A DNA stretch of 57,636 bases from an uncultured Planctomycetia bacterium (GTDB taxonomy: Bacteria > Omnitrophota > Gorgyraeia > VGKN01), in assembly GCA_964506845.1 (NCBI GenBank), contig CAZDNS010000005.1, positions 2,975 to 60,610 of the forward strand, given 5' to 3'. Numbering within the stretch: position 1 is the stretch's first letter; every line of letters begins with the position of its first letter. A program made the position numbers and the translations under genes. The notes below the pieces were generated by a model. The model did not search any database. It saw only the letters and a list, made by a program, of their open reading frames with translations, and was not told the origin of the DNA. Shown piece after piece: positions 12,056-36,867 of the stretch.

Positions 12056-13263
12056 AGATACACCTCTATGGCAATAATGCCAATATGGCTTTTAACTTCT
12101 GCAGGTTTCTCCGCAGGCTGAATATAGAAGCCTGTGTATATGTGGACAGCTTTCCGCTTGTAAGGAGCGACCTTCCTGAATGGGAATTACCACAGGAGAG
12201 CCGCTCGGAATGGGTAAGATATGTGGATGTGTCAGTAAAGGGCCTGCTTAGATTGAGAAAAAAAGAAAGAACGTTTTTGAGCGAACTTAAGGAATGCGAC
12301 CTTATACATTCTTTCGGAGAGGCCTCGATGCTTACCCAGTTCGCAAACAGGCCGTATCTGCACTGGACCTACGGCTACGATTTGGATAACATCCCTTTTA
12401 AGAACGGCTCTCCCAAGCATATAATACTTGCAGGTATTCAGAGGAAGGCGCTAAAGAAGGCGGGTCTGGTCATTTATTCAATGCCGCACCAGAGAGAATC
12501 GGTTGAGAAATTGCGTCTAACTAATGCCCTTTATTTCCCATTTATTCCTATTGAGACAGAAAGATATAGAAAAGTAGATGAGGGTTCTGTAGAGAATATC
12601 CGCAAGAAGTATAACTGTGATTTTTTATTTGCCCATCTGGCGCGTCAGGAATGGGTAAGAAACGAACCTGGCCAGCAGAACAAGGGAAACGATAAGTTAT
12701 TCCGGGCGTTTGCCCGTTTCGTGAAATCGGACAAGGTTAATGCCATTATGCTGGTTGCCGAAAAGGGAAGGGATGTCTTAGAGAGCAAGCGCCTGATAAC
12801 GGAGCTGGGGATTGAGGCTAACGTGGAGTGGATTCCTTCGCTACCCAAAGATGAACTCATCAGGCTCTTAAGCGCTGTGGATATCGTATTTGACCAGTTC
12901 AATGCCGGCTCAGCCGGTCTTTTGGTGCTGGAATCTATGTCAATGGAAATACCCACCTTTATCTATTTTAGCAGGGAATATACGTCATTTTTCAAGGAGC
13001 CGCCGCCTGTCATAAATGTATTTACAGAAGAGGAAATTTATAATAAAATTATAGAATTATGTAAAAATAAGGAAAGAGGCGCCCATATAGGGCATTTGGA
13101 AAGGGAATGGGTAAAAAAATACTTTAACTGGGATATCGTAACCAAGCAGTTTATCAGGTGTTATGAAGATATATTAGGAGGTCAAATGAAGACGCAGTTT
13201 ACGGAACGAACCCATTCGACTTTGCTCAGGGTTCGTCCTGAGTGTAATCGAAGGACGAAGTGA
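12052..13263 (+). CDS. Glycosyltransferase (GT4/GT-B); last ~25 aa come from the adjacent repeat
   Basis: DIVFDQF...GLLVLESMSMEIP; tail MKTQFTERTH... reads through the element arm. Confidence 0.8.
   Translation: MKIHLYGNNANMAFNFCRFLRRLNIEACVYVDSFPLVRSDLPEWELPQESRSEWVRYVDVSVKGLLRLRKKERTFLSELKECDLIHSFGEASMLTQFANRPYLHWTYGYDLDNIPFKNGSPKHIILAGIQRKALKKAGLVIYSMPHQRESVEKLRLTNALYFPFIPIETERYRKVDEGSVENIRKKYNCDFLFAHLARQEWVRNEPGQQNKGNDKLFRAFARFVKSDKVNAIMLVAEKGRDVLESKRLITELGIEANVEWIPSLPKDELIRLLSAVDIVFDQFNAGSAGLLVLESMSMEIPTFIYFSREYTSFFKEPPPVINVFTEEEIYNKIIELCKNKERGAHIGHLEREWVKKYFNWDIVTKQFIRCYEDILGGQMKTQFTERTHSTLLRVRPECNRRTK
13211..13254. repeat. REP-like palindrome nested in the loop of the family C left arm
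   Basis: TTCGA..TGCTCAGG / CCTGAGTG..TCGAA pairing; flanked by ACGAA at 13206-13210 and 13255-13259; absent from the other arms. Confidence 0.65.
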
Positions 13264-13304
13264 ACGTAAATTGCATGTCTGAATTTGACCCTTGACATTT
13301 TGCA

Positions 13305-13607
13305 ATGAATCAAATTTATTATGCTTATATCTTACAGTGTAATAATAACACTAAATACTATGGTCATATGAATAATTTGATAGAGCGCATTAAAGATCAT
13401 ATAAGAGGTCGTGTTTGTTCTACAAGAAATAAACAACCAGAATTGGTTTATTATGAGGAATTCAATTCATGTTCACAGGCGTTTAAACGTGAGATGCAGT
13501 TTAAGAATGGAAAAACTCGTAGGACCACTATAGAAAAATTGATAAGATCGTTTCCGAAGGAAAAATGTCAAGGGTTCAATTCACAGACACTTCGTTATAA
13601 TCCTTGA
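13305..13607 (+). CDS. Small stand-alone GIY-YIG nuclease (YhbQ/UPF0213-like)
   Basis: YAYIL..YYG..NNL.ER...H..G...T...P.LVYYE.F....A.KRE...K. Confidence 0.85.
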   Translation: MNQIYYAYILQCNNNTKYYGHMNNLIERIKDHIRGRVCSTRNKQPELVYYEEFNSCSQAFKREMQFKNGKTRRTTIEKLIRSFPKEKCQGFNSQTLRYNP

Positions 13608-13649
13608 CAGGCTTGTCAAGGATTATCTGCTCATTGAAGGAGGTAATAA

Positions 13650-14420
13650 ATGCAGTGCGTCATACTCTGCGGCGGTTTAGGCACAAGGCTAAGGGAAGAA
13701 ACTGAATATCATCCCAAACCCCTTGTTAAGATAGGCAATATGCCGATACTGTGGCATATAATGAAGATTTACTCCCACTATGGGATTAAAGAATTTATCC
13801 TTTCTCTGGGTTACAAGGGAGAGATGATAAAAGAGTTTTTTGTAAACTATAAGTATTTTCACAACGATTTCTCCCTGAATCTAAAGACGCATAAGGCGAA
13901 TATTATGTCCGACGGCGAGAAGATAGAAAACTGGAATATTGTATTTGCCGATACCGGGATAGAGACCTCTACCGGAGGCAGGATTACGCGTGTAAAGAAA
14001 TATACGAAGGATAATGAGCCCCTTTTTCTGGCTACATACGGGGATGGCGTGGCAAACGTAAATATCAGAAAACTAATAGAATTTCACAGGAGAAATAATA
14101 AGATAGCCACGCTTACCGCTGTTCATCCGGTTTCTAAGTATGGGGTAATAGAAATAAAAGGCAGTCTTGCAAGGAGTTTTGCCCAGAAGCCGAGCTTAGA
14201 GGGTTATATTAATGGCGGTTTTTTTGTCTTTAAAAAAGATGTTTTTGATTACCTCGACGATGAGATGATGTTAGAAGATGTGTTTCCCCTGCTTGCTAAG
14301 GAAAACCAGCTCGCGGTTTATCAGCATAATGATTTCTGGCACTGTATGGATACCTATAAGGATTATCAGGTTTTAAACAAGATGTGGGAAACCGGAAAGG
14401 CTGAATGGAAGATATGGTGA
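13650..14420 (+). CDS. rfbF: Glucose-1-phosphate cytidylyltransferase
   Basis: [45 protein letters not shown]. Confidence 0.92.
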
Positions 14421-15403
14421 AAAAAAATAATTTCTGGCATAACAGGAATGTACTCGTAACCGGATGCACCGGCTTGCTCGGCTCCTGGCTTACGAAAAAC
14501 CTCGTTGAAAAAAGGGCTAACGTTATAGGGTTAATCCGCGATTGGGTACCCCGGTCCAATTTATTCACTATGGAGCTCTTTAACCGCATAACCACTGTAA
14601 GAGGAGAGGTGGAGGATGAAGTTCTTTTAGAAAGGATAATAAACGAATACGAGATAGAAACGGTTTTTCATCTAGCAGCCCAGACTATCGTAGGTATAGC
14701 CAATAATAACCCTGTATCCACATTCCGCACAAACATAATGGGCACCTGTAATATCCTCGAGGCAAGCCGAAGAAATAATAGGGTAAAACAAATTGTTATT
14801 GCCTCAAGCGATAAGGCATACGGTGAATGCCCGAACCTTCCATACGATGAGCAAACCCCTCTAAAGGGTACGCACCCTTATGATGTATCAAAGAGTTGCG
14901 CAGACCTTCTGAGTGTGTCTTACTTTAAGACATACCGCCTGCCTGTCTGCGTAACGCGCTGCGGGAATTTCTTCGGTGGAGGAGATTTGAATTTTAACCG
15001 GCTTATCCCCGGCACTATCCGCTCCGCCCTCTTGGGTGAAAGGCCTATTATAAGAAGCGACGGCACCTGCATACGCGATTATTTTTATATAAAGGACGCT
15101 GCCAACGCATATATGTATCTGGCAGAGAAGATGAACGAGATAGATATAGCCGGCCAGGCGTTTAACTTCGGAAATGAGGTAAGAGTAAGCGTCCTTGATA
15201 TGGCAAGGAAGGTCTTAAAACTTATGAAGAAGGAGCACCTCAAGCCCGTTATTCTGAACGAGGCGGATTGCGAAATTCAAAATCAATACCTCTCTTCTAA
15301 AAAGGCAAGGGAGATCCTTAAATGGAAACCCCTGTATTCTCTGGACGAGGGTTTGAAGGAGACTATAGAGTGGTATAAAGAATTTTTTCAAATGAAGACG
15401 TGA
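14414..15403 (+). CDS. rfbG: CDP-glucose 4,6-dehydratase-like SDR
   Basis: [41 protein letters not shown]; follows rfbF. Confidence 0.8.
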
Positions 15404-15574
15404 CTTATGGAACAAAGTGAACATAAGTCACTGTCTGAATTTGACCCTTGACATTTTACCTTAGAAAAGTTGCATCCATAACAAAATGTCAAGGGTTTAA
15501 TTCGCACCAGCAAAGAGGTTAAACAAAGAAGATTGATACTTGACATTAAAAAATGTCAAGTATCAAGCGCTCAT
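15392..15574. mobile_element. Family C element, copy 2: no nuclease gene (putative non-autonomous)
   Basis: Same ATGAAG...GCTCAT ends and same inner IR as copy 1 (15437-15457 / 15483-15503), enclosing only 25 bp. Confidence 0.75.
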
Positions 15575-15590
15575 TAAAGGAGAAAAACCT

Positions 15591-16046
15591 ATGATACAAG
15601 GGGTCAAAATAAAAGATCTAAAACAGATACCGGATGAACGGGGCAGGATAGGCCATATGCTGCGAGAGGATGATGAGGTTTTTGAGAGGTTCGGCGAGAT
15701 ATATTTTTCATACTGCTATCAGGGAGTCGTTAAAGGATGGCACTATCATAAGAAGCAAAAGGATAATTTCGCTGTTATTAAGGGTATGATGAAGGTGGTG
15801 CTTTATGACCCGCGCGAAAATAGTCCTACGAAAGGCGAGATTATGGAGATTTTTATAGGGGAACACAACCCAAAACTCATTACTATACCTGAGAATGTAA
15901 TTCACGGCTTTAAGGCTATAGGAAACGAATACGCCATCCTCGCTAACTGCGCTACCTATCCCTACAACTATCAGAACCCCGACGAGTATCGCATAGACCC
16001 CTTCAAAAACGATATCCCCTATGACTGGAACATAAAACAGGGTTGA
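15591..16046 (+). CDS. RmlC-family NDP-4-keto-6-deoxysugar epimerase (cupin)
   Basis: DERG, KGWHYHKKQ, YDPRENSPT, HGF; AAGGAG RBS. Confidence 0.88.
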   Translation: MIQGVKIKDLKQIPDERGRIGHMLREDDEVFERFGEIYFSYCYQGVVKGWHYHKKQKDNFAVIKGMMKVVLYDPRENSPTKGEIMEIFIGEHNPKLITIPENVIHGFKAIGNEYAILANCATYPYNYQNPDEYRIDPFKNDIPYDWNIKQG

Positions 16047-16077
16047 CGTTGATGAATTTTTCAGACCCTGTTTTATG
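16031..16077. repeat. 13-bp perfect inverted repeat overlapping the stop of the RmlC-like gene
   Basis: CATAAAACAGGGT (16031-16043) / ACCCTGTTTTATG (16065-16077). Confidence 0.6.
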
Positions 16078-16139
16078 ACCGATATAACTTGTAGAACAGA
16101 GGGTATATTTTATGCATATCAAAAAAGAAACACAATAGA

Positions 16140-17084
16140 ATGAAAATTCTGATTACAGGAGCAACCGGATACTTAGGCAGTTTCGTAGCAGATTATCTCA
16201 TAAAGCAGGGCTATGATATCCGTTTAACTGCAAGGACTATCCCTGATTTTATGAAGGAATGGTCTATGCGGTTTGAATTCCTTGCAGGCGATGTCCTGGA
16301 TAGCGATTTTTGCTTGAGGGCGAGCAGAGGAGTAGACTTTATCCTGCATTTTGCTGCCTTAAATGAAGTAGAATGCGACAAATCTCCTGAGATGGCTTTA
16401 AGGGTAAACGGCATAGGCACATACAATATGCTATACGGGGCATCCAAGAATTCTATAAAGCGCTTCTATTACATATCCACCTTCCATGTCTATGGTGTTC
16501 CAAAGACAGATACAATAACCGAGGATACGCAAGCGTTACCCTTAAGCCATTATGCGATAAGCCACTATGTGGCGGAAAGGTACTGCGAGCAATTTTTTTT
16601 GAAAAAGGGGTTATACTTCAACATCCTCAGGATTTCAAACGGATATGGCGCTCCCTTATTTAAAGAGATAGACAGGTGGTCGCTGGTGTTAAACGATTTT
16701 TGCAGGAGTGCAATTTCTAAAAAAGAGATAACACTTAAGACCAAAGGGACCCAGCGAAGGGATTTTATCTCCCTGGGCGATATCTCAAGGGCAATCCAGA
16801 TTTTAATAGACGGTCGGGAAACCCAGCAGAGGTTATTCAATGTAGGCGGAGAAAATCCGAGGAGTATCAGGGAACTTGCGGATATGGTTATATATATTTA
16901 CAAAAAGGATTTTAACGAGAAGGTTGAGTTTAAATTCGCAGAACCCATTTTAGATACATCGGGAGAGAGAAGTTTCGCTTTTGACATAAGTCGTATAAAG
17001 CGCCTGGGTTTTAATCCGCAGTCAGATATGGAAAGGGAAATTCATAAACTGATTGAGTTATGCTATGAATTCAGAACAGATTAG
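16140..17084 (+). CDS. NAD-dependent epimerase/reductase (SDR)
   Basis: ITGATGYLG, STFHVYG; YAISH in place of the usual YxxxK. Confidence 0.85.
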   Translation: MKILITGATGYLGSFVADYLIKQGYDIRLTARTIPDFMKEWSMRFEFLAGDVLDSDFCLRASRGVDFILHFAALNEVECDKSPEMALRVNGIGTYNMLYGASKNSIKRFYYISTFHVYGVPKTDTITEDTQALPLSHYAISHYVAERYCEQFFLKKGLYFNILRISNGYGAPLFKEIDRWSLVLNDFCRSAISKKEITLKTKGTQRRDFISLGDISRAIQILIDGRETQQRLFNVGGENPRSIRELADMVIYIYKKDFNEKVEFKFAEPILDTSGERSFAFDISRIKRLGFNPQSDMEREIHKLIELCYEFRTD

Positions 17085-18531
17085 GGATAAGAAGGTAGTT
17101 ATTGTTGGTGCAGGGATATCCGGCCTGACCATCGGCAGCATCCTTACCGACAATGGTATTAAGGTGACTATACTTGAAAAGGAAAAGGAGGTAGGGGGCC
17201 TTGCCAGAAGCGTTAAATACGACGGTTTTACGTTCGATTTTGGCCCGCACTGCATATTTGAGAACCAGGGAAAGGCAGGTAAATTTATAAAAGAGCTCCT
17301 GAAGGACGAACTCTTAGTTGTGCCTAAAAAGACAGGTGTTTTTCTAATGGAAAAATATTACAACTGGCCGTTAAATCCAGAGGTAATTATAAAGCTGCCC
17401 TGGAGGGTTAAGTTTAATGCCCTGTTCGATTTCTTTTACAGGAAAAGATATGAGGGAAATTCTTTAAGGGAATATCTTTTAAACAGATACGGGAAAACCC
17501 TTTACCGGATAGACTTTGAGCCCTATACGAAGAAATTTCTGGATATAGACCCTTTAAACCTTGACCCGGACTGGATGAAAATCGGAATTATAAGAGCAGG
17601 CGCAGGAGAGAAATTAAAAATGGGTTCGCTCTGGCAGGTATTTTTCTCTTTATTCAGAAAAAAGGCCGAATTCTTCACATATCCCAGGGGCGGCTCTATC
17701 CGGTTTCCGCTTGCGCTGGCAGGACAGATTTCTGATGCAGGCAGCCAGATAATAAGGGAGGCGGAGGTTACGGGCATCGAGTCTAATTCCGATAAAATTA
17801 CCTCTATTCAAACCCCAAATGGTAAATTTTATGCAGACCATTTTGTATGGACAGCGCCTCTCACCATTCTGGAGAAACTACTTTTTAAAAATACCGAAAT
17901 TGCAAACGGCTTAGATTATATATCTATGATATTTTATAATATGGAGATAAATGGAAAGATACCCTCTGAATACAGATGGTGTTATTTTGTGGATACGAAT
18001 ATATTCTTTCCGCGCTTAAGTATTTCCACTCTTTTTAGCCCGGCGAATTCTCCTGAGGGCAAAACCAGCCTTACGGTGGAAGTTACCTGCAAAAGGGATG
18101 CCGAGATATGGAACGCTCCGCAGAAATATCAGGATAAGATTATCGAAGACCTTAAAAGGGTGGGCGTCATAAAGGAGAGAGCGCAAGTAGAAAGGATATA
18201 CATAGAAAAAATAGAATACGCCTATCCTGTTTATCGTCTCGGATACAGGGAGGAGTTGGCCAGACTTGAAAATAGGCTTAAGGCTTATACAAATCTTACC
18301 CTTTCAGGCAGGCAGGGGACGTTCTGGTATTGCAATATGGACCATTGCGTGGAGCAGGGGATTGATATTGCCAATAACCTCATTAAGGAATTAAATGAGG
18401 GGTCAGGGAATTTTCCACGACCCCTCATCCCGAGCGAAGCGAGGGATCTCAAAGATCCTTCGGCCTTACGGCCTCAGGATGAGCCCTCGATAAATATAAA
18501 AAACTCCCCGAGAGCTCAATTAAATGAATAA
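17065..18531 (+). CDS. FAD-dependent oxidoreductase (HemY/Glf-like fold) with a 43-aa repeat-derived C-terminal insertion
   Basis: IVGAGISG, VGGLARS..FDFGPH, YAYPVY, GRQGTF.Y.NMDH. Confidence 0.85.
   Translation: MNSEQIRDKKVVIVGAGISGLTIGSILTDNGIKVTILEKEKEVGGLARSVKYDGFTFDFGPHCIFENQGKAGKFIKELLKDELLVVPKKTGVFLMEKYYNWPLNPEVIIKLPWRVKFNALFDFFYRKRYEGNSLREYLLNRYGKTLYRIDFEPYTKKFLDIDPLNLDPDWMKIGIIRAGAGEKLKMGSLWQVFFSLFRKKAEFFTYPRGGSIRFPLALAGQISDAGSQIIREAEVTGIESNSDKITSIQTPNGKFYADHFVWTAPLTILEKLLFKNTEIANGLDYISMIFYNMEINGKIPSEYRWCYFVDTNIFFPRLSISTLFSPANSPEGKTSLTVEVTCKRDAEIWNAPQKYQDKIIEDLKRVGVIKERAQVERIYIEKIEYAYPVYRLGYREELARLENRLKAYTNLTLSGRQGTFWYCNMDHCVEQGIDIANNLIKELNEGSGNFPRPLIPSEARDLKDPSALRPQDEPSINIKNSPRAQLNE
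18397..18517. mobile_element. MITE-like element family A, copy 2 (121 bp, 8-bp TSD AATTAAAT)
   Basis: AATTAAAT at 18389-18396 and 18518-18525; GAG...CTC ends; core shared with 14-141. Confidence 0.8.
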
Positions 18532-19171
18532 CGATAAGACAGGCAGGGTTATCGATTTAAGATACAAGGTAGCCTTTTATGACCCGATGAATTTTTTTCT
18601 TTACCTATTATTCGGGGGAGAAAAAAGATTCCGCAGTGAGATTATCAAATATGCTACTTTATCTGAAGATATGTCCTTACTGGATATAGGTTGCGCTACT
18701 GGAGGAAATGTAATCTCGGTTTTAGAGACGGTGCCGTTTAAATTGCGGGTTTACGGTTTGGACGCCGCTTTTAATATAATACGCCACGCAAGGGATAAGG
18801 TATTAAAAAAAAACTTAAATGGCCATTTTGTTCAGGCTATGGCAGAGTATCTGCCTTTTAAAGATAACACCATAGACCGCATCATTAATGTTTTTATGCT
18901 TCATCATCTAAGGTATAAAATGAAGGTAAGGGCGTTAAAGGAGATGCACAGGGTGCTTAAAACAGGCGGGGTTTTGATAGTAATTGACCCAGCCAAACCG
19001 CACAACCTGCTTGGCAAAATATTTGGTTTTTTAAGGTGCTATATACCCGAGATAAATGAAAGCCTTAAGATGCCTTTGGCAGAACTGGTAAAAGAGGGAG
19101 GTTTTAAGGACGCGGCTACGCTTAGAAACACCCTTGGATGTTTTTCTTTTGTACGCGCCAGAAAGGAATAA
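18524..19171 (+). CDS. UbiE-like class I SAM methyltransferase
   Basis: LLDIGCATG, AEYLPFKD, LKEMHRVLKTGG. Confidence 0.85.
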   Translation: MNNDKTGRVIDLRYKVAFYDPMNFFLYLLFGGEKRFRSEIIKYATLSEDMSLLDIGCATGGNVISVLETVPFKLRVYGLDAAFNIIRHARDKVLKKNLNGHFVQAMAEYLPFKDNTIDRIINVFMLHHLRYKMKVRALKEMHRVLKTGGVLIVIDPAKPHNLLGKIFGFLRCYIPEINESLKMPLAELVKEGGFKDAATLRNTLGCFSFVRARKE

Positions 19172-19173
19172 AA

Positions 19174-20139
19174 ATGACAAAACCTGATACAGAGATATTA
19201 AACAAAAGGATATTAATTACAGGTGGCGGAGGGTTTATAGGTTCTTACCTTATAGACAGACTCGTAGGAAATAACGAAATATTAATTGTGGATAATTTTC
19301 ATCGCAACGCCCTGCGCTATTTACCCGAGACTATCAGGAAAAAGGTAAGGGTTTTTAAAGGAGATGTACTAAATAAAAATTTAATTTTAAGAGTAAGCCG
19401 TAAGTGCGATATTATAATTCACTGTGCGGCGATAGCGGGTATTTACACGGTTGTTAAAAAACCAACTATGACTATGAAGGTTAATTTTTTAGGTACCTAC
19501 AATGTGTTGGAAGCCGCAGTAAAAAATAAGATAAAGAAAATGATAAATTTTTCAACGAGCGAGGTTTACGGCCCGTTTATTTATAAAGGGAAGGAAGACG
19601 ACCTGACGAGCCAGGGGAATGCAAAAGAGGCTAGGTGGATTTATGCGGTGAGTAAACTTGCAGGAGAGCATCTGGCGCATTCCTACCAGAAGGAATTCGG
19701 CCTCGGCGTGGTCACTGTAAGACCTTTCAATATCTATGGCCCGCGCCAGATAGGCGAAGGTGCTATACAGGCTATGATATTAGGCTGCCTTAAAGAGCAT
19801 AAGGTTATTCTTTATAACGACGGGACGCAGATAAGGACATGGTGCTATATTGACGATTTCATCGATGCTGTTATGCTATGCCTTGCGAAGGAAAAGGCAG
19901 TCGGAGAAATATTTAATATCGGAAATCCTCAAGGCACAATCACCAATCTTAAACTGGCAGAGATAATAGCGCGGCTTACCAATAGCCATCCTAAGATTAT
20001 ATTTAAAAGACATCCCGGGCCAGAGGTAGAGATGAGGGTTCCGGATATAGGCAAGGCAAAGAGGTTGCTTGGTTTTAATCCCAGGATATCCTTAGAAGAA
20101 GGTATTATGCGTACCATTGAGTGGTACAAGAAAATATGA
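19174..20139 (+). CDS. NAD-dependent epimerase/dehydratase (UDP-glucuronate decarboxylase-like)
   Basis: ITGGGGFIG, STSEVYG, RWIYAVSK, RPFNIYGPRQ. Confidence 0.88.
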   Translation: MTKPDTEILNKRILITGGGGFIGSYLIDRLVGNNEILIVDNFHRNALRYLPETIRKKVRVFKGDVLNKNLILRVSRKCDIIIHCAAIAGIYTVVKKPTMTMKVNFLGTYNVLEAAVKNKIKKMINFSTSEVYGPFIYKGKEDDLTSQGNAKEARWIYAVSKLAGEHLAHSYQKEFGLGVVTVRPFNIYGPRQIGEGAIQAMILGCLKEHKVILYNDGTQIRTWCYIDDFIDAVMLCLAKEKAVGEIFNIGNPQGTITNLKLAEIIARLTNSHPKIIFKRHPGPEVEMRVPDIGKAKRLLGFNPRISLEEGIMRTIEWYKKI

Positions 20140-20148
20140 AAGGTTGAT

Positions 20149-21183: not shown

Positions 21184-21186
21184 GAT

Positions 21187-24627: not shown

Positions 24628-24628
24628 T

Positions 24629-26650: not shown

Positions 26651-26660
26651 ATTATAAGGG

Positions 26661-28770: not shown

Positions 28771-29507
28771 ATATATATTTTTTAATGACAGATGAACCAG
28801 TATATTCGCCTATAACCTGCAGAATCTTTTTGAAAAAATATGCTGATAAGATAGCAGGGATTTCATTTCCTCCCGGCGCAATGAATAAAAAAAGGATTAT
28901 TAGCACAATGAGGATTTATGGTTTACGCCGTTTTTTTAGTATGAGCATTTATCATATGTTATGGATGATAAGAGGCGGGAGAATAGCCAATATATTTCAT
29001 CAATATCAAGCGAAGGTTTATTCGACCGAGAATATCAATAGCCCTGTGTTTATAGATTTGCTAAAAAACCTAAGAGTGGATTTGATAATTTCATTTAATT
29101 GCCCGCAGGTATTCAGGAAAGAACTTATAGCAGTTCCTGCAAAGGGGTGCATAAATGTGCATTTTGGAATGCTGCCCAAGTACCGCGGTATTCAGCCGAT
29201 TATGCACGCCCTCTTAAACGGGGAAAAAGAATTCGGCGTTACTGTGCATTATATAGACGAAAAGCTTGACAGCGGGGATATTATTATTCAAGAGAAAATT
29301 CCAATTTCAGAAAAAGATATTTTAGATACCCTATACCCAAAAGCTTTTGAAACCGCTGGTCATCTTCTTGTGAGGGTGGTTGATATGATAGTAAATGATA
29401 CCGTAAAGCGTATATATAACGACCCGTCTAAAAAAAGTTACTATACATATCCTCGTAAGGAGACCATTAAACAATATCGCAGACTATGCCATATGCGTCA
29501 AAGGTAA
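28767..29507 (+). CDS. Formyltransferase (Fmt-like, probable sugar N-formyltransferase)
   Basis: INVHFGMLPKYRG, GVTVHYIDEKLDSGDII. Confidence 0.9.
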   Translation: MNIYFLMTDEPVYSPITCRIFLKKYADKIAGISFPPGAMNKKRIISTMRIYGLRRFFSMSIYHMLWMIRGGRIANIFHQYQAKVYSTENINSPVFIDLLKNLRVDLIISFNCPQVFRKELIAVPAKGCINVHFGMLPKYRGIQPIMHALLNGEKEFGVTVHYIDEKLDSGDIIIQEKIPISEKDILDTLYPKAFETAGHLLVRVVDMIVNDTVKRIYNDPSKKSYYTYPRKETIKQYRRLCHMRQR

Positions 29508-30757
29508 GTTTCAGATATATTTTGATTATTATGCTTATAGGGCTCGTCCTTAGGCTTGCATTCTCTCTGTTGGTTCCGGTACCGGTCACAAAAGACTCCT
29601 CAGGATATAATAAACTTGCCTTGAGTTTAATTTCCGGTAATGGCTTAACTTATGATATGAAAAACCCAACCCTTTTTAGAGGCCCTGTTTATCCCTTGTT
29701 CTTGGCAGGGATTTACTCGATATTCGGGTATAACTTTGTCATAGCAAGGATAGTCCAGGCCTTCATAGGGATTGCTTTATGCCTCGTATTTTTTTATTTA
29801 TCAGGACAATACCTTGATAAAACCCTATCTAAGCAGGCGCTTACCGCTCTTGCGCTACATCCTGTCCTGATAGCATTAAGCAGTTCTCTGCTTTCCGAGT
29901 TGTTGTTTACATTTCTATTAGGGTTAAGCACTATTAGCCTAACATACGCCTTTGGCAAAAAAGATAAACTCGCTTATTTTATATCCGGTCTGCTCTTTGG
30001 CGTAACTACCCTCACAAGGGCAATAACCGCTTATTTTGCACCCTTTTTATTATGCGCTCAACTTATTTTTTACAAAAATAAAAAACTTATACTAAGCCAC
30101 ATAACGTTTTTTTTATGCGGGCAACTTTTGCTTATCCTCCCCTGGGCAATTAGAAATTATGCCGTATCCGGTCAATATTGTTCGGTAGCCACAGGAGGAG
30201 GAATAGCATTATGGCTTGGCACCTATACGCCGGGCAGGGGTTATGACCTCGGAATGAACCCGGACGTCTATAGAAAATATGAAGGGGTTGTAGGAAAGGG
30301 GCAAAGCTATACCACCATAGAAAATGATAAAAAATTATTCAGAGCCTCTTTAGAGAATATAAAAAATGACCCCATGGGATACATCCTTTTAATACCCGTC
30401 AAGCTTCAAAGGATGTTTATAACCAGTTACAGCTCTTTCTTTAACCTTCACGAAATATCGTTAACAGATTATCTAAGAAATCCCCAGTTGATTTTGCAAA
30501 GACCCTTTATCCCTTTATGGAAAGCACTGATGCTTTTTATCTCAGTAGTTATAGCGACATTTGGTCTTTTTGGGATATGGCAGATTAGGTATGATGTGGA
30601 GAAATTTATACCTGCTCTAATAGTAATTGTATACTTTGTAGTATTTCATGTTCTTTCATTTGCAAGTGCAAGGTCCGGCATACCTATTCTGCCATTTCTT
30701 TTGATATTTGCGGCGAAGGGTTTTAATGGTATATTTTCAGTTAAAGCACGCATATGA
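29486..30757 (+). CDS. ArnT/PMT-like GT-C membrane glycosyltransferase
   Basis: D...Y..LA, RGPVYPLFLA, LLSELLF, LTR, PWAIRN. Confidence 0.8.
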   Translation: MPYASKVSFRYILIIMLIGLVLRLAFSLLVPVPVTKDSSGYNKLALSLISGNGLTYDMKNPTLFRGPVYPLFLAGIYSIFGYNFVIARIVQAFIGIALCLVFFYLSGQYLDKTLSKQALTALALHPVLIALSSSLLSELLFTFLLGLSTISLTYAFGKKDKLAYFISGLLFGVTTLTRAITAYFAPFLLCAQLIFYKNKKLILSHITFFLCGQLLLILPWAIRNYAVSGQYCSVATGGGIALWLGTYTPGRGYDLGMNPDVYRKYEGVVGKGQSYTTIENDKKLFRASLENIKNDPMGYILLIPVKLQRMFITSYSSFFNLHEISLTDYLRNPQLILQRPFIPLWKALMLFISVVIATFGLFGIWQIRYDVEKFIPALIVIVYFVVFHVLSFASARSGIPILPFLLIFAAKGFNGIFSVKARI

Positions 30758-32469
30758 ACAGTAAATTTAAGTTAGGGATAGCCATAATTCTTATTTTGTT
30801 AATAGGCGGATATTTAAGATTTGCTAATCTTGCAAAGAGAGGTATATTCTCATGGGACGAGGGGCATTATGTAGGCGTGCTCTATACCCTATCGGCGGGT
30901 ATTAAATATATTTTTAGGGTTTTTGTTCTTGGGGAGAATTTAGGCAAATTTTCTGACTATATGCTTACCTATGGAGTTAACCATTATCTTGCAGCAAAAC
31001 CAACCTTTTTTGTTTTAGGCCTTATTACAGCCTTATTTACAGGGATGAAAGTCTATACATTGCAAATAGTCTCTGCGGCAAGCGGTTTGTTAACTATAGG
31101 GGTTATTTATTTAATAGCGCATATTACAAAGCAAAGAAGAACAGGAATTTTTGCCTCATTCGCTCTGGCAGTTTCTTATTTTCATACTTATTATTCGCGG
31201 ACAGCAATGCCTCATATTGCAGCAATATTTTTTGCATACCTTGCGCTTCTTTTATATCTTAATTCAATTCATAAGGACGAAACTATTTCGGGGCATAAAA
31301 TTTACAACAGATACCTGTTATGGTCAGGTTTTATAACAGGGATAGCCTTTAGTTGCCATTATAATCTCTATTGGATGCCCTTCATTTTCTGGTTTTGTGA
31401 AATTTTATATTACACTTCAAATTTTAAGAAAAAACCCTTGTTGTCCAAGATCCGTCGTTTTCTTATCTTCTCTTTATGTATGGCAGCTCCACCAGTGTTT
31501 TATGAACTGTTACTGCGCGCTATTAAGGCATATATATATCTGCATCCCAGTCTGGCATCTGCCATCGGAGGCAACTCTGGATATGGAATATTCTATGATT
31601 ACTTTGAACAGCTTTTTTATCAAATTAAATATCTTGATAATGACTATCAATTTAGCAACCGTTTTTTTTATATCCATATGCTTTTCTTAAAAGAGGGGGT
31701 GCTTGTTGTTTCTATTTTCCTGATAGGTTTTTTTTATAGCCTATATAATCTCTGGAAAAAGTTTGCTATATCTGAATTTTTAATGTTGAGTTTTTTTATA
31801 ATCCCGTTTGTTTTGGTAATCGTTAATCCCCATATCCCTAATATGCGCACCTTTATTGTCGTATTACCGGCTTTTTTCTGGTTTGTAGGAAAGGGATTTA
31901 TCTGGACAGAGGGTTTTATCAAGAGAATTCATTTGCCTCATTTTATTAAACCGCAATATATAACAATCTTACTTGCTATTTTTGTGCTTAGCCACAGCCT
32001 GAGCCTGTCAAGGGAATATCTAAATCAAGCTTCAGGCTACAGGGAAGCGCTCCAATATATGGAAACCCATGAGGGGATAAAGCACTTTAGCTCTAACCCC
32101 ATTATCACAAGGATATACGCAGGAAGGAAAAATGCCTATGATATAAGAAGTTATTATCCCGCTGGCCAGGAAGACGCAAGCTCGGGTAATTTCTCGTTAG
32201 ACCATGTTATAACGTTATATAATAAAGGGTTTAGATATCTTATCCTTGACCATTTGAGATACCGTTACAGCAATGCCTTAGTTTCAGCCGCTGAAAACAT
32301 ATCCCCGGTATTTAGCGCCTTTCATTCCAGCGATGCCGATATGTTTGAACGGGGATATGAGGGTATTAAATATGCTAAGGCTTGCCCTAAAAGGATAGAG
32401 GTTTACAGGGTAGAAGACCTGTTAAATCAAATCTCAATATCAAAAAAACAGGGAGTATCGCTTAGATGA
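30754..32469 (+). CDS. ArnT/PMT-like GT-C membrane glycosyltransferase
   Basis: LRFANL...WDEGHY, AKPTF, HTYYSR; many TM segments. Confidence 0.75.
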   Translation: MNSKFKLGIAIILILLIGGYLRFANLAKRGIFSWDEGHYVGVLYTLSAGIKYIFRVFVLGENLGKFSDYMLTYGVNHYLAAKPTFFVLGLITALFTGMKVYTLQIVSAASGLLTIGVIYLIAHITKQRRTGIFASFALAVSYFHTYYSRTAMPHIAAIFFAYLALLLYLNSIHKDETISGHKIYNRYLLWSGFITGIAFSCHYNLYWMPFIFWFCEILYYTSNFKKKPLLSKIRRFLIFSLCMAAPPVFYELLLRAIKAYIYLHPSLASAIGGNSGYGIFYDYFEQLFYQIKYLDNDYQFSNRFFYIHMLFLKEGVLVVSIFLIGFFYSLYNLWKKFAISEFLMLSFFIIPFVLVIVNPHIPNMRTFIVVLPAFFWFVGKGFIWTEGFIKRIHLPHFIKPQYITILLAIFVLSHSLSLSREYLNQASGYREALQYMETHEGIKHFSSNPIITRIYAGRKNAYDIRSYYPAGQEDASSGNFSLDHVITLYNKGFRYLILDHLRYRYSNALVSAAENISPVFSAFHSSDADMFERGYEGIKYAKACPKRIEVYRVEDLLNQISISKKQGVSLR

Positions 32470-33398
32470 GCGTGGTTTACAGAGACAGGGCTTTATCTCA
32501 GGTTCCCAGGATATTAGGGTTAATTGACAGGGATGGGTCTTCAAAAACTTACGGGTGCTCTGACCGTTATTACTGGCATTATAGGTTTCATGACTTTAGC
32601 AATGCCAGATTTCAGGAGGTATCGCTCCTGTTAGCCTTATTGTTTAAGTATGATTTTGAAGATAATCCATTTTTCAGAAATAAAAAAATACTTTCGTGGG
32701 CATTGGGCGCAATAAAATTCTGGGCGAGAATAAGAAACAAAGATGGGAGCGTGAACGAGGCTTACCCCTTTGAGAGGTCGTTTTGCGCTACCGCATTAAG
32801 TACCTTTGCGATAACCGAGGCTATGTTGGCTCTCGGGATTAATGAACAGGTGCGGTTGGAAAAAACCGGTCTATGGTTAAAGAAGAATAACAATACAAAT
32901 GTAGCTAATCAGATGGCGGGTTCAGCAATCTCATTATTTAATATATACCTTCTGACAGGGGATATTGTTTTTAAGGAGGCATCAGAGAAAAAAATAGAGA
33001 TTCTTATTAAAAACCAGAATTCCGATGGCTATTTTCTTGAGTATGGAGGCGCGGATATCGGCTATCAAAGTCTTACCTTGAGTCTTCTTACAAGGTACTA
33101 TAAGAAGGCTAAATCTACCCTTGTCCTTGAATCAATAGAAAAGGGCATAAGGGCACTTGAGAAGGTAATTTTGGATGGCGGAAGTTTCGATTATTCTATG
33201 ACTAGCAGGAAGACACAATTTCTCTACCCTTATTGTTTTACGATGTCCAATAATAATATTATAAATAAACATATAAAGGGGTTAAAGGAAAACAGGGTAC
33301 TTGAGCCGGGCTGGCTCGATGACCGCTATGTGATTCCCCTAACCACAGACTATCTGCATCTTTATCTGGTGTCTGAAAATGTTTATGACAACGCCTAA
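32466..33398 (+). CDS. Hypothetical protein, possible alpha/alpha-barrel
   Basis: Long ORF coupled by ATGA; TYGCSDRYYWHY, QNSDGYFLEYGGADIGY. Confidence 0.6.
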   Translation: MSVVYRDRALSQVPRILGLIDRDGSSKTYGCSDRYYWHYRFHDFSNARFQEVSLLLALLFKYDFEDNPFFRNKKILSWALGAIKFWARIRNKDGSVNEAYPFERSFCATALSTFAITEAMLALGINEQVRLEKTGLWLKKNNNTNVANQMAGSAISLFNIYLLTGDIVFKEASEKKIEILIKNQNSDGYFLEYGGADIGYQSLTLSLLTRYYKKAKSTLVLESIEKGIRALEKVILDGGSFDYSMTSRKTQFLYPYCFTMSNNNIINKHIKGLKENRVLEPGWLDDRYVIPLTTDYLHLYLVSENVYDNA

Positions 33399-33555
33399 AC
33401 TGATTTTGCTTCGCATATATAACCTAACATTAGGAAGGTGCTCTTTTTTTTCAAAAATTCTAAGAAGAATTCTACTATGCATTCTGGTGTATAAAAAGGG
33501 TGAAAGATATGTTGCCAGTTCTAGATATTTTGATTGGTCGGATATTGAAAAATAG
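33379..33555 (+). CDS. Small 58-aa ORF absent from the ORF track
   Basis: MFMTTPKLILLRIYNLTLGRCSFFSKILRRILLCILVYKKGERYVASSRYFDWSDIEK; fills the gap between two coupled genes. Confidence 0.55.
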   Translation: MFMTTPKLILLRIYNLTLGRCSFFSKILRRILLCILVYKKGERYVASSRYFDWSDIEK

Positions 33556-33567
33556 CTTTAAAAACAT

Positions 33568-35007
33568 ATGGATATAGTTTTAATTTTACCAAAAACCAAG
33601 GAAGTTGAGTTTGAAAACATAGAAGTGCCCTATTCAATTCTATGGGTTGGCAGTTATTTGAGCCATCGGCAAATAAATGTTAAATTGTTTGATGAGCGCG
33701 TTACAGGCGATAAAGACATACTTAACTACGTTCATTCTCACAAGATAGAATATGTCGGGGTCTCGACGATGACCGGCCCGCAGTTAAAATATGCTATTGC
33801 CATCTCAAGAAAAATAAAAGAATTGGACAATAAGATAACTCTTATCTGGGGAGGAGTCCACCCTACAATTTTGCCTGAAACGGTATTATTTAAGAACTAC
33901 GTGGATTTTGTGGTGCGGGGCGAGGGCGAAGAAACCCTCTATGAATTATTAAGCGCTTTAGAGAAAGGGAATTCGTACGAGAGAGTTCAGGGGATATCCT
34001 ATAGAAATGGCAAAACGGTTACGAATAATCCTTTCAGGAGATTTATGGACCTCGATAGCGTCTCTATGGACTGGAGCCTATTGGATATGTCGCAGTATAT
34101 CTATGAGGATAATGGAAAGCGCAGTATTTCTTTTACCGTTTCGCGCGGTTGTCATTTTAGATGCAGGTTCTGCTGGAATGTCATTGTGCATAATAGAAAA
34201 TGGCGGTCCTGGAGCTTGGATAAAGCAAAGGAAGAAATTGAAAATTTAATCGCTAAATTCGGTATTAACTATGTTAATTTTATTGACGATAATTTAAGCT
34301 CGGGAAGGGAATACCTTTTTGACTTGGCGGAATTCTTAAAGAGAAAAAATGTAGGCTGGTTTGCATCCCTTAGGGTTGATTTTCTGTCAAGCGAAGAGAA
34401 TATAAAAAGATTGGACGGCTGCGATGGATTATATGTAGGCTCAGAATCAGGGGACGATAGGATACTGCTTCATCTTCAAAAGGATGCTACAGTTGATCAG
34501 ATTGTCAAGAGCGCTCAACTTTTAAAAAAATATGGCATTAAAGGAAATTTCAGTTGGATGGTTGGTTTTCCTGGAGAAACCAGAGATGAGGTGTTAAAAA
34601 CAATTGAACTCGTAGATGAGGTAGCTAAGATTATGCCGACTGCGGCTCAGAGAGTTCGCATCTGGAATCCATATCCCGGCTCATCTTTATTTGAAGAGGC
34701 CGTGGGTATGGGTTTTAAACCGCCTAAGGAACTCGAGGGATGGTCAAATTTTACCAGAGAATATTGCGTATTAGACTACGTTAAAAATCCCTGGGAGCTC
34801 AAGTGTATTAGTTATGTTACATTCTTTTATTTCTACCAGGGTGCCAGGCGAAGCGCAAAACTGCTATACAAGCCTATTCTTTTATTTTTAAGAAAAGTTT
34901 CTTCGTGGCGTTGGAGGAATAAGATATTTAAATTTCCGATAGAATTCTATTTGATTGAAAAAATAAGGGAATTAATCTCCCCTGTCAAGGTTGGCAGGAG
35001 TGATTAG
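33568..35007 (+). CDS. B12-binding radical SAM protein (class B methyltransferase-like)
   Basis: WGGVHPT, VVRGEGE, SRGCHFRCRFC, GSESG, GFPGET. Confidence 0.9.
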   Translation: MDIVLILPKTKEVEFENIEVPYSILWVGSYLSHRQINVKLFDERVTGDKDILNYVHSHKIEYVGVSTMTGPQLKYAIAISRKIKELDNKITLIWGGVHPTILPETVLFKNYVDFVVRGEGEETLYELLSALEKGNSYERVQGISYRNGKTVTNNPFRRFMDLDSVSMDWSLLDMSQYIYEDNGKRSISFTVSRGCHFRCRFCWNVIVHNRKWRSWSLDKAKEEIENLIAKFGINYVNFIDDNLSSGREYLFDLAEFLKRKNVGWFASLRVDFLSSEENIKRLDGCDGLYVGSESGDDRILLHLQKDATVDQIVKSAQLLKKYGIKGNFSWMVGFPGETRDEVLKTIELVDEVAKIMPTAAQRVRIWNPYPGSSLFEEAVGMGFKPPKELEGWSNFTREYCVLDYVKNPWELKCISYVTFFYFYQGARRSAKLLYKPILLFLRKVSSWRWRNKIFKFPIEFYLIEKIRELISPVKVGRSD

Positions 35008-35036
35008 GGTGCTGTTTTGAGTTAAAAAGTGCAAAT

Positions 35037-36485
35037 ATGAAGGTACTAATTTTAAATCCCGTTAGCAAATTTACAAAAAATGTAGTGCGGGACGTCTTAT
35101 ACGGCTGCTGGTGCAAGGGAAAACGCATAGGCGGGGCCACAGTTCCGCCGTTCGGGCTGCTTGTGGTTGCAACTGTGTTAAAAAATGATGGAAATGAAGT
35201 GGTTTTTTTGGATGCCCAGGCGGAACAATTGGGCATAGAAAAGCTAAAATCTATTATAGTGAATTTTGAAGTTGTAGTTATCTCTACCTCTACTATGAGC
35301 TACCGGGAAGATGCAGCAGTGCTTTTAGAATTAAAAAGGGCTAATCCAACATTAAAAACAGTGATTTTCGGCTCTCATCCTACGTTCTTACCCCATTCTG
35401 CGCTTGGAAATAAGGGCGTGGATATAATTGTGCGAAGGGAGCCGGAATATATCATAAGGGATTTAATCAGGGAAATAATAAAGGGTGACTCTTCGTGGAA
35501 AAGGGTTATGGGGATAGGTTTTAAGGAGGGCAGGGAATGTGTTATAAATGAATACTATCCCTTTATTGAGAATCTGGATGAACTTCCCTATCTGGATACT
35601 TCTCTTTTACCAGAAGGTATAGACTATTTTAATCCGATAGTAAAGCGCTTGCCCTATATCACCACCTCTACTTCAAGGGGATGCCCGGGAAGATGCACCT
35701 TCTGCACAGCACCTGCCTTTGACGGGATGAGGCTGCGTTATCAGTCAAGCGATTATGTCCTTGGCCAGATAGAGGAATTTTTAAAAAGAGGCTTCAAAGA
35801 AATCTATTTTAGAGACGATACCTTTCTTGTGGATAAAGCCAGAGACATAAAGATATGCAGGGGTATTATAGAAAGGGGATATGATGTTTCCTGGATTTGC
35901 AATGTAAGAATAGGGATGATAGATAAACAGATGTTAGAATTGATAAAGGAGGCAGGTTGCCATCTTATTAAAACAGGCGTTGAGAGCGGCGTTCAGGAGA
36001 TACTCGATAGGGTCAAAAAGGGAATAAGAATAGAGCAGACCAGAGAGGTTTTTAGATGGGCTAAAGAAGCGGGAATTGATACGCATGCCCATGTGATGCT
36101 TGGAATGCCGGGCGAGACAGAGGATACCCTAAAACGCACTGTTGATTTTGTGCTTGAGATTGCGCCTACAACTGCTACGTTTGGGATATGCACACCCTAT
36201 CCGGGAACGCCCCTTTTTGAGGAGGTGGCTGAACTTTCTCCGGACTTAAAAGATGGAACAGACTCAGATTTTAGCAAACTGCATACCGTAGGGTTGTTTA
36301 ACGAATGTTATACCAGTCTTGATAAACTAAAACTGGAAAAGGCAGTCAGGTTCGCCTATAGAAGGTTTTACTGGCGCTTTCCTTATCTTTTAGAGATGCT
36401 TTCCAAGATAGACGGGATAAGGGATTTTAAAAAATTTGCTATCGCAGGATTAAATGTATTTGATTTTGCCCTGCAAGGAGATTAA
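35037..36485 (+). CDS. B12-binding radical SAM protein
   Basis: GSHPT, SRGCPGRCTFC, GVESG, LGMPGET, PYPGT. Confidence 0.9.
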   Translation: MKVLILNPVSKFTKNVVRDVLYGCWCKGKRIGGATVPPFGLLVVATVLKNDGNEVVFLDAQAEQLGIEKLKSIIVNFEVVVISTSTMSYREDAAVLLELKRANPTLKTVIFGSHPTFLPHSALGNKGVDIIVRREPEYIIRDLIREIIKGDSSWKRVMGIGFKEGRECVINEYYPFIENLDELPYLDTSLLPEGIDYFNPIVKRLPYITTSTSRGCPGRCTFCTAPAFDGMRLRYQSSDYVLGQIEEFLKRGFKEIYFRDDTFLVDKARDIKICRGIIERGYDVSWICNVRIGMIDKQMLELIKEAGCHLIKTGVESGVQEILDRVKKGIRIEQTREVFRWAKEAGIDTHAHVMLGMPGETEDTLKRTVDFVLEIAPTTATFGICTPYPGTPLFEEVAELSPDLKDGTDSDFSKLHTVGLFNECYTSLDKLKLEKAVRFAYRRFYWRFPYLLEMLSKIDGIRDFKKFAIAGLNVFDFALQGD

Positions 36486-36855
36486 ATGAAGCCACAACTT
36501 AGCGAGCGTTAGTGAAGCTAAGTTGTTTGGCTGAATTTAACCCAGCACTAATTTTATGTATTTTGTTTATCTTCTGAAAAATGAGATAACCAACGAACTT
36601 TATTATGGGTATACAAATGACTTAGAACGGCGCTTAAAAGAGCGTAATCTAAATGCGAAATGGAAACTCATATATTACGAAGCATTTGCTTCAGACTTGG
36701 ATGCCAGAGAAAGAGAAAGAAAATTGAAAGATTATGGTCAATCAAGAAATCATCTTAAAAATCGTCTTAAAAGGTCATTACAATTATAAAATTAGTGCTG
36801 GGTCCAATTCGCACAGCAACTTATGTTCACTTTGTTCCATAAGTTGCGTGCTCAT
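36486..36855. mobile_element. Family C element, copy 3: second GIY-YIG gene enclosed by structured inverted repeats
   Basis: ATGAAG...GCTCAT ends; perfect 18-bp inner IR ACCCAGCACTAATTTTAT (36540-36557) / ATAAAATTAGTGCTGGGT (36786-36803); hairpins in both arms. Confidence 0.8.
36556..36789 (+). CDS. Small stand-alone GIY-YIG nuclease
   Basis: YFVYLL...LYYGYTNDLERRL...WKLIYYEAF....DARERERKLK. Confidence 0.88.
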   Translation: MYFVYLLKNEITNELYYGYTNDLERRLKERNLNAKWKLIYYEAFASDLDARERERKLKDYGQSRNHLKNRLKRSLQL

Positions 36856-36867
36856 AGGAGAATAAAA

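Follow-up and report, generated by a model that had tools for sequence, protein, structure and literature searches.

Transposition and homing in prokaryotes are known to proceed by the chemistries of DDE, HUH, serine and tyrosine recombinases, Cas1 and reverse transcriptases. Here we analyse a family of modular palindromic repeats associated with small GIY-YIG nuclease genes, three members of which lie in a 57,636 nt stretch of DNA (hereafter the window), contig C5 of the source genome G000 (NCBI GenBank assembly GCA_964506845.1; 2.05 Mb, 140 contigs, 40% G+C). The closest named relatives of G000 are metagenome-assembled genomes (MAGs) of Candidatus Omnitrophota, and the sequencing runs containing the window's DNA are groundwater metagenomes. 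An earlier reading of the window's letters alone (the original prediction) had placed elements at 13186–13634, 15392–15574 and 36486–36855, and had proposed a REPtron/REPIN-like system in which a minimal GIY-YIG nuclease is the associated enzyme.

Several described systems resemble this family in part. As in REPtrons (REPINs, that is paired repetitive extragenic palindromic (REP) sequences, with their REP-associated tyrosine transposases, RAYTs), the repeats are short, intergenic, high in copy number and mostly gene-less, each consists of two hairpin-forming units in inverted orientation, which is the layout of a REPIN, a single small enzyme gene is flanked by repeats, and no target duplication is seen. 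Unlike in REPtrons, the enzyme is a GIY-YIG hydrolase rather than a Y1 HUH transposase, its gene occupies the dyad centre of a complete element and is bounded by an additional inner repeat specific to its clade, and the distribution is patchy rather than vertical, whilst the Y1 genes of G000 carry other repeats. The insertion sequences of the IS200/IS605 group and their palindrome-associated (PATE) derivatives share subterminal hairpins, the lack of target duplication and oriented insertion beside a short specific sequence; nucleotides at the hairpin foot are also complementary to the element boundary, and those on one side seem to be target-derived (at one site), as in the guide/cleavage-site pairing of IS200/IS605, a resemblance in outcome only. 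In contrast to IS200/IS605, the ends are inverted repeats of each other, the elements contain neither TnpA (Y1) nor TnpB, and a GIY-YIG enzyme is not known to form a covalent intermediate.

Free-standing and intron-borne GIY-YIG homing endonuclease genes, such as those of I-TevI and the Seg proteins, are similar in that the nuclease is the sole gene of a selfish insertion in the middle of an apparently split recognition site, and spread by break repair is plausible in both. Here, however, the protein is a bare Slx1-like domain of ~85 aa lacking a DNA-binding extension, and the ‘homing site’ is a multi-copy palindromic repeat with structured terminal inverted repeats, not a unique gene. Bacterial miniature inverted-repeat transposable elements (MITEs) such as Correia/CREE, ERIC and RUP are likewise about 110–230 bp long, intergenic, co-transcribed, bounded by terminal inverted repeats and derived from a coding master by internal deletion. 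Those MITEs depend on DDE transposases and duplicate their target, whereas in our family no duplication is found, the genome has no DDE_Tnp_1 match, its single rve gene has no arms beside it, and the arms are independent fold-back hairpins with conserved loops.

The family is far larger than the three copies first noticed. In G000, 72 facing-arm pairs were listed, six of which were mispairings (centres of 837–12123 bp) and were removed, leaving 66 paired copies. There are 118 occurrences of the core motif GAATTNNACCC, where 15.5 would be expected, and 67 of the 18-mer GAATTNNACCCTTGACAT, with none of its reversed control. A looser arm definition gives ~186 arms, including a third, one-armed class of ~36 copies, and the true copy number is higher because many contigs end inside copies. 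No coding cargo other than GIY-YIG was found between the arms of the 66 G000 copies and the related loci. Two window elements carry such genes, which differ from each other, as had been predicted; the open reading frames (ORFs) at 13305–13607 and 36556–36789 match Pfam PF01541 with E-values of 5.5e-9 and 1.9e-10 (36.6 and 41.3 bits, cut-off 22.6). Sequence-profile placement puts them in the UPF0213, or bacterial Slx1-like, group, with the same minimal GIY-YIG domain and matches to PDB 1zg2 (E-value 1.8e-11) and 1ywl (7.2e-10), and the group I intron endonuclease model TIGR01453 was not reached (17.2 bits, cut-off 56). The cargo proteins are 77–90 aa long with no extra domain, and none has a C-terminal DNA-binding extension of the I-TevI type. 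The first ORF had been given as 100 aa, which is correct as an ORF, but its last ~14 codons run on into the right inner repeat and the right arm, leaving a domain of ~86 aa.

Arms also surround GIY-YIG genes elsewhere, which the original prediction had made a test of the association. From 80 small GIY-YIG loci of many phyla gathered by protein search, and from additional scans, we obtained 15 arm-embedded loci in about 13 Omnitrophota-type assemblies: the Omnitrophota-type relatives from the protein search, L021, L022, L023, L024/L005, L025/L006, L050, L091 and L096, all have the same arms, L026 has only the right arm and the inner repeats, L125 (genome G032) and L133 (G010) were added by a Pfam scan of five genomes, and motif matches added L116 (G172, frameshifted) and L278 (G028, cut by a contig end). 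In all 15 the ORF start adjoins the left arm. L096 (contig CAYRPI010000155.1, 1675 bp), an Omnitrophota-type element with the CACACCCAGC inner repeat, stands in a MAG labelled Candidatus Babeliaceae, which could reflect either a binning error or horizontal transfer.

In a first protein alignment the columns Y5, Y8, Y18, G20, R28 and E63 are invariant, as they are in a second, and we take these Tyr, Gly, Arg and Glu columns to be the GIY, YIG, Arg and Glu catalytic motifs. The element 1 nuclease is 81–82% identical to the L021 protein with a dN/dS of 0.08, and that of element 3 is 65% identical to the L091 protein, whose locus has the same arms and the same inner repeat; dN/dS was 0.08–0.19 in the four computable pairs, whilst two further pairs were saturated. 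By these substitution ratios the nuclease is a protein that has been kept working. Synonymous sites between element 1 and L021 are near saturation (dS about 1.5) whilst the inner repeats and arm cores are almost unchanged, and these are therefore constrained as well. We take the family to be a selfish, MITE-like set of palindromic elements, the autonomous ones each encoding a single minimal Slx1-like (UPF0213) GIY-YIG nuclease that would act, in a broad sense, as the family's own mobility enzyme, a reading in which our confidence is about even.

Each element has two layers, an outer one of two inverted fold-back hairpin arms and an inner one of a short inverted repeat specific to the nuclease clade. 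All three predicted elements, and their layout, were borne out by the sequence and by inverted-repeat analysis, including the 25 bp predicted between the inner repeats of element 2. Part by part, with left (L) and right (R) arms, they read as follows.
Element 1, L arm: 13182..13291, + strand; TCAA-ATGAAGAC, a hairpin with a nested palindromic insert of ~50 nt, then GTCTGAATTTGACCC; TCA pairs with core TGA.
Element 1, left inner inverted repeat: 13292..13301, + strand; TTGACATTTT, T type.
Element 1, cargo ORF: 13305..13607, + strand; Slx1-like/UPF0213 GIY-YIG nuclease.
Element 1, right inner inverted repeat: 13562..13571, + strand; AAAATGTCAA.
Element 1, R arm: 13572..13638, + strand; GGGTTCAATTCAC, hairpin ATAATCCTTGACA/TGTCAAGGATTAT, then CTGCTCATT and GAA; GAA pairs with core TTC.
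Element 2, L arm: 15388..15447, + strand; TCAA-ATGAAGAC, hairpin GTGACTTATG/CATAAGTCAC with loop GAACAAAGTGAA, then TGTCTGAATTTGACCC; supported by arm covariation.
Element 2, centre: 15448..15492, + strand; TTGACATTTT and AAAATGTCAA around a 25-bp remnant (15458–15482).
Element 2, R arm: 15493..15578, + strand; GGGTTTAATTCGCACC, a spacer, hairpin TTGATACTTGACATT/AATGTCAAGTATCAA, then GCGCTCATT and AAA.
Element 3, L arm: 36482..36543, + strand; TTAA-ATGAAGCC, hairpin ACAACTTAGC/GCTAAGTTGT, then TTGGCTGAATTTAACCC; TTA pairs with core TAA.
Element 3, left inner inverted repeat: 36544..36555, + strand; AGCACTAATTTT, A type.
Element 3, cargo ORF: 36556..36789, + strand; 77-aa GIY-YIG nuclease of a different clade from that of element 1; the stop codon lies partly in the right inner repeat.
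Element 3, right inner inverted repeat: 36788..36799, + strand; AAAATTAGTGCT, 92% complementary.
Element 3, R arm: 36800..36859, + strand; GGGTCCAATTCGCACA, hairpin GCAACTTATG/CATAAGTTGC, then GTGCTCAT and AGGA; its final bases are shared with the Shine-Dalgarno site of the gene that follows.

In element 1 the inverted repeat extends over 13280–13301 and 13562–13583 (91% complementary), and the GAA at its R end may come from the target. Read inward, an arm consists of AATGA, a 4–6-bp stem, a 9–10-bp hairpin whose 12-nt loop is conserved (GGAACGAAGTGA), the second strand of the stem and GAATT-NNN-CCC, with a tandem G.A/A.G mismatch enclosed by AAT/ATT and by the stem pairs. In 68 arms of 55–58 nt, 1059 of 1088 cells were canonical pairs (500 shuffles: mean 817, maximum 840), and the stems contained 40 extra canonical pair types. 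Around 3% of arm pairs are G.T, equally on the two strands (44 vs. 53), a low, symmetric share more in keeping with a palindrome in the DNA than with a structure of the RNA alone; the same absence of asymmetry defeated an attempt to assign the strand by G.T wobble. Pairing continues beyond the arm proper, between the trinucleotide outside AATGA and the one that follows GAATT; position by position, 116, 119 and 71 of 127 arms are paired. All three are paired in 64 of the 127 (1000 shuffles: mean 16.1, maximum 28), with the matched variants TCA/TGA, TTA/TAA, TTT/AAA, TCT/AGA, TTC/GAA and TCC/GGA. The predicted terminal motifs ATGAAG and GCTCAT are present, but by this boundary pairing the structured ends extend 2–3 nt beyond them.

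Small palindromic modules are nested in arm loops, at 13210–13258 of the window and in many other G000 arms, for example CCCATTCGAC...CGAAGG, CCGCCACAGAACTTTGGCGG, CCTGCCTGCCGTCAGGCAGG and TCCCGAAACTTCGGGA, and copies with and without a nested module coexist; in runs X1 and X3 a joint 13209->13259 represents copies of the element 1 L arm without the nested insert. The one-armed repeats, found at ~36 places in G000 (e.g. C2:61561 (-), C47:3883 (-) and C91:5989 (+)), consist of CCTCCTTAATGA, a hairpin and GAATTAATCCC, then GAGCTTA, a hairpin and TAAGCGAGGGAT, and often stand in tandem with other copies.

The elements sit inside operons, oriented with the neighbouring genes, and end directly 5' of a Shine-Dalgarno sequence. 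Of 30 complete elements, 21 are followed by a same-strand ORF beginning 8–29 nt past the R end, three have only an opposite-strand ORF there, and 22 of 30 complete L–R elements have a same-strand ORF upstream. The right flank is typically (A)AAGGAGG, and a co-directional start codon follows all 13 intact gene-bearing copies, read by eye from their flanks. Lacking its own ribosome-binding site, the nuclease gene would depend in this position on read-through transcription. In the window the elements lie within a long block of co-directional ORFs (9000–40000), where the original prediction names glycosyltransferase and rfb/rml-type sugar-nucleotide genes. Element 1 lengthens its upstream ORF (12052–13263) by ~26 codons and element 2 its own (14405–15403) by three.

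The predicted existence of an empty site in relatives held for element 2. A 2837-nt contig from run X5, of another study and ~88–90% identical, joins 15381->15573 and lacks 191 nt, with a 3-nt ambiguity (...GTGGTATAAAGAATTAAAGGAGAAAAACCTATG), the polymorphism being a single site in a single related strain. In run X4, which represents a more distant relative, element 1 is missing and homology picks up again at 13638. As AAA precedes GGAG in the element 2 empty site too, the three nucleotides paired with the R-arm core seem to be target-derived and the L-end TCA element-derived, an asymmetry seen at this one site and requiring that a one-codon TTT difference between the strains be allowed. No target duplication was found, flank similarity being 3.67 vs. 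3.77 for shuffled pairs, which argues against a DDE-type mechanism. The same values dismissed the Shine-Dalgarno motif as a target-site duplication (AGGAGG stands on both sides of elements 1 and 3), since true flanks were no more alike than shuffled ones. Excision of ATGAAG...GCTCAT restoring an upstream stop codon (TGA/TAA after GCTCAT) was likewise rejected, as these nucleotides covary with the arm core and the TAA is out of frame in the empty-site strain, whilst the yceD–rpmF junction of G000 was too diverged, and held other repeats, to serve as an empty-site comparison for L021.

Distribution is patchy: the T-type motif is present in four of 41 relatives and in none of three same-family genomes, and a high L-core copy number is found in three of 301 genomes of the phylum. 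A 12-mer match in 107 of the 301 had suggested a wide low-copy L core in Omnitrophota, which we mostly reject, as 18 of 20 single matches fetched were chance matches inside genes and two were real.

The strict orientation with transcription and the fixed position just before Shine-Dalgarno sites, together with the covarying stems and the absence of T runs after the hairpins, would also be expected of immobile intercistronic RNA structures retained by selection for mRNA stability, processing or translational coupling. We consider this the least probable of the accounts discussed here, and a very improbable one. Ends that are inverted repeats would give a sense RNA with G.A mismatches in one arm and U.C in the other, and the equal rarity of G.T pairs on both strands points to a palindrome at the level of DNA. 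The presence/absence polymorphism between strains, the patchy distribution, and the nested insertions and assembly breaks at copies also speak against it. Rfam gave no match over the window at gathering cut-offs; in 13100–15700, with E-values up to 1 admitted, there was a chance miRNA match at 0.075.

We then consider which enzyme might move the arms. The predicted lack of DDE, HUH or recombinase genes in the window holds for the four families searched genome-wide: Y1_Tnp, Phage_integrase (one tyrosine recombinase) and rve genes lie on other contigs, and DDE_Tnp_1 (PF01609) has no match in G000, the DDE families covered by the profile search being DDE_Tnp_1 and rve. The arms flank none of the four Y1_Tnp genes and not the single rve gene, and for these two families the arms are thus not the ends of an element whose transposase lies elsewhere in the genome, a possibility that the original prediction had named as fatal to it. 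Neither of the other two outcomes that it had named as refuting was observed. Among the families searched, no enzyme other than GIY-YIG is associated with the arms.

The Y1 genes deserve separate mention, as the arms might be REP/REPIN-type repeats mobilised by a RAYT-like Y1 (HUH) transposase of G000, with the GIY-YIG genes as incidental passengers. G000 does encode four Y1_Tnp proteins of 223–319 aa (C35:3632-3961, C23:14506-14838, C17:3917-4252 and C79:7430-7756), the paired inverted hairpins resemble REPINs, target duplication is lacking, and the 3-nt pairing beside the helix recalls that between guide and cleavage site in IS200/IS605. Yet each of the four genes is bracketed by its own short inverted repeat, of the GGGGACAG or GGGACACATCC type, forming a separate repeat system, Y1_Tnp is present in 34 of 41 relatives where the arms are in only four, and the two ends form a true inverted repeat, whereas those of IS200/IS605 are same-strand hairpins. 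Such a role for Y1 is in our view very unlikely.

The sequences between the arms are informative as to how copies arise. Centre classes in G000, with lengths counted including the inner repeats (a second count by the centre alone agrees), are as follows.
18–19 bp: 27 copies.
44–45 bp: 19 copies.
40–42 bp: 3 copies.
60 bp: 3 copies.
A-type, 46–49 bp: 7 copies.
A-type, 32 bp: 2 copies.
A-type, 95–100 bp: 2 copies.
171 bp, containing a nested repeat: 1 copy.
280 and 256 bp: 2 copies, both GIY-YIG copies.

The 44–45-bp centre is TTGACATTTTGYTATGRATGCAAC joined to CTTTTCTAAGGYAAAATGTCAA, and matches the T-type cargo (L021, element 1) over ~19 nt at its start, ATG included, and ~20 nt at its end. 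On this match such centres look like internal-deletion derivatives of a gene-bearing element. Their breakpoints are common to 19 copies, which also have the arm subtypes of element 1, so that the deleted form was multiplied after its origin. Particular arm subtypes go with particular centre types, for example GAATTTACCC with 19-bp centres and GAATTTGACCC with TTTT-type centres; this, and the polymorphism of element 2 as a whole, indicate that whole units and not only centres were multiplied. Each of the three high-copy genomes has a gene-bearing copy of its dominant type, namely G000 (T and A), G039 (T, two copies) and G028 (A, cut by a contig end).

There are at least five inner-repeat types, TTGACATTTT, AGCACTAATTTT, CACACCCAGC, CCACACCAATTAT and CCCACCACTTTT, each paired with its own nuclease clade, and gene-less copies in metagenomes have additional types. 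The 25-bp remnant occurs in both orientations relative to the L arm (12 vs. 6, counted by hand), whilst the gene has a single orientation in all 15 loci. The bare joined site TTGACATTTT|AAAATGTCAA has no copy in G000, every site being occupied. Taken with the polyphyly of the nucleases described below, the clade-specific inner repeats and flipping remnants suggest, from sequence comparison, that gene and inner repeat together form a separable cassette located in the dyad centre. A separable gene cassette in a shared scaffold fits these data at least as well as a REPtron with co-evolving enzyme and repeat, and the cassette has probably spread by cleavage of unoccupied centres and repair.

This leads to the alternative in which the nuclease is a passenger, that is, a homing endonuclease cassette (a GIY-YIG gene and its own inner repeat) that parasitises the repeat by splitting a palindromic recognition site at its dyad centre and spreads among copies by cut-and-repair, whilst something else moves the scaffold. 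The one-to-one relationship of inner repeat and nuclease clade, polyphyletic nucleases in constant outer arms, the full occupancy of sites and the contrast between remnant and gene orientation all agree with it. Beyond the arms, other small GIY-YIG genes of the same genomes lie in or beside tRNA genes with duplicated tRNA parts, and among the 80 small GIY-YIG loci, 26 are flanked by inverted repeats scoring at least 16 (a score reached in none of 1600 shuffles) and a further 19 by direct repeats of at least 20, frequently copies of part of a tRNA. Against a passenger role, no other enzyme is associated with the arms to move them, the co-variation of arm subtype and centre type means that whole units have multiplied, and the element 2 polymorphism spans the whole unit. 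We regard the passenger account as possible, but as less likely than the nuclease being the family's own mobility enzyme.

Returning to the reading in which the nuclease serves as the family's own mobility enzyme, several observations weigh against it. GIY-YIG enzymes are known to nick or cleave DNA by hydrolysis but are not known to transfer strands, and a nuclease limited to hydrolysis cannot by itself explain homology-free insertion at new sites. In the nuclease tree, in which proteins are short and deep forks weak, the 13 arm-embedded nucleases included fall in at least three separate places (four label changes are needed, and the branches starred in the tree force at least three) and none of 200 bootstrap trees unites them, whilst the outer arms are the same throughout; a dedicated enzyme–repeat pair would be expected to co-diverge, from which this pattern departs. 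Copies with an intact 18–19-bp central palindrome (29–30) coexist with an intact T-type nuclease gene, albeit with other arm subtypes. Genome G032 (a 95%-complete assembly) has gene-less copies of the T type and a gene-bearing copy only of a different type, and gene-bearing copies are rare overall, two of 66 in G000 and none among 13 real arms in the metagenome sample. Finally, since the sole empty site comes from a strain diverged by ~10%, the termini can be placed only to within 7 nt.

If the nuclease does mobilise the family, it would recognise and cut the element's own palindromic or hairpin DNA, and the break would be repaired by copying another copy, which could spread both the gene cassette and its deletion remnants among copies. 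Moving whole units by a hydrolytic nuclease would need host joining functions, with which whole elements may reach new Shine-Dalgarno-adjacent sites, these targets perhaps being chosen via the 2–3 ‘guide-like’ nucleotides that adjoin the helix of each arm. On this view the enzyme would act in trans on gene-less copies, which would be non-autonomous derivatives. Of the REPtron/REPIN-like system originally proposed, the association of repeat and gene thus stands, whilst mobilisation of the arms by the nuclease is an inferred mechanism only.

Small GIY-YIG genes outside the arms are found in other settings. Seven loci (L027, L130, L135, L128, L136, L134 and L141; Omnitrophota and Patescibacteria) have the gene in or beside a tRNA gene with a duplicated tRNA part opposite, for example a 37-nt copy of the tRNA 5' half up to the anticodon loop in L135 and an 83-nt direct repeat in L130, and by this arrangement they look like selfish insertions that restore their target. 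Others (L057 from Parabacteroides segnis, L069, L100, L035 and L062) have unrelated, hairpin-containing inverted repeats; the L057 arm has 12 occurrences in the Parabacteroides segnis genome, including a gene-less pair 60 bp apart, and the L069 arm has three. In G000 itself, a GIY-YIG gene of ~95 aa directly follows a serine-recombinase frame that stops at about 65 residues (C36:2050-2700) and may have inserted into that gene, and one of ~115 aa with another inverted repeat (CCTCATCCTGA...) lies upstream of a small basic ORF resembling a ribosomal protein (C123:2300-3100).

The passages on this group in a 2006 survey (PMC1564403) describe bacterial Slx1-like proteins as mostly vertically inherited and cite an earlier prediction of a role in DNA repair. 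Unlike in the view given there, the genes of our family, and those of the 26 and 19 repeat-flanked loci above, are bounded by repeats in the manner of selfish insertions. A full-text literature search, with subscription journals and supplements outside its reach, yielded no account of bacterial REP- or MITE-like repeats containing GIY-YIG genes, and an earlier description is possible; a 2026 Omnitrophota preprint with 176 complete genomes (10.64898/2026.06.07.730766) has no occurrence of MITE, palindrom or inverted repeat.

The family combines known kinds, a homing nuclease gene and a MITE or REPIN, and what appears new is the GIY-YIG gene inside such bacterial repeats; that the combination amounts to a new element class we consider less likely than not. 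In its strongest form, which we put forward as a speculative proposal and would not ourselves expect to hold, this would be a previously unrecognised class of prokaryotic transposable element whose sole enzyme is a minimal Slx1-like GIY-YIG nuclease acting on fold-back hairpin ends, which chooses Shine-Dalgarno-adjacent targets via 2–3 guide-like nucleotides, makes no target duplication and spawns swarms of MITEs, and by extension much of the large orphan UPF0213 family across bacterial phyla, whose genes often have other inverted repeats or duplicated tRNA parts beside them, would consist of selfish nucleases, not repair enzymes.

For Omnitrophota genomics the repeats have a practical consequence, as they break genome assemblies and many contig ends of G000 fall within copies. 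In nature the elements also exemplify ‘safe-site’ insertion, immediately 5' of ribosome-binding sites, and target choice guided by base pairing, should it occur, would be relevant to programmable DNA insertion. Should the nuclease prove to be the mobility enzyme, a GIY-YIG-based element would join the short list of prokaryotic transposition and homing chemistries, and the widespread orphan UPF0213 (bacterial Slx1-like) family would gain a concrete, testable function.

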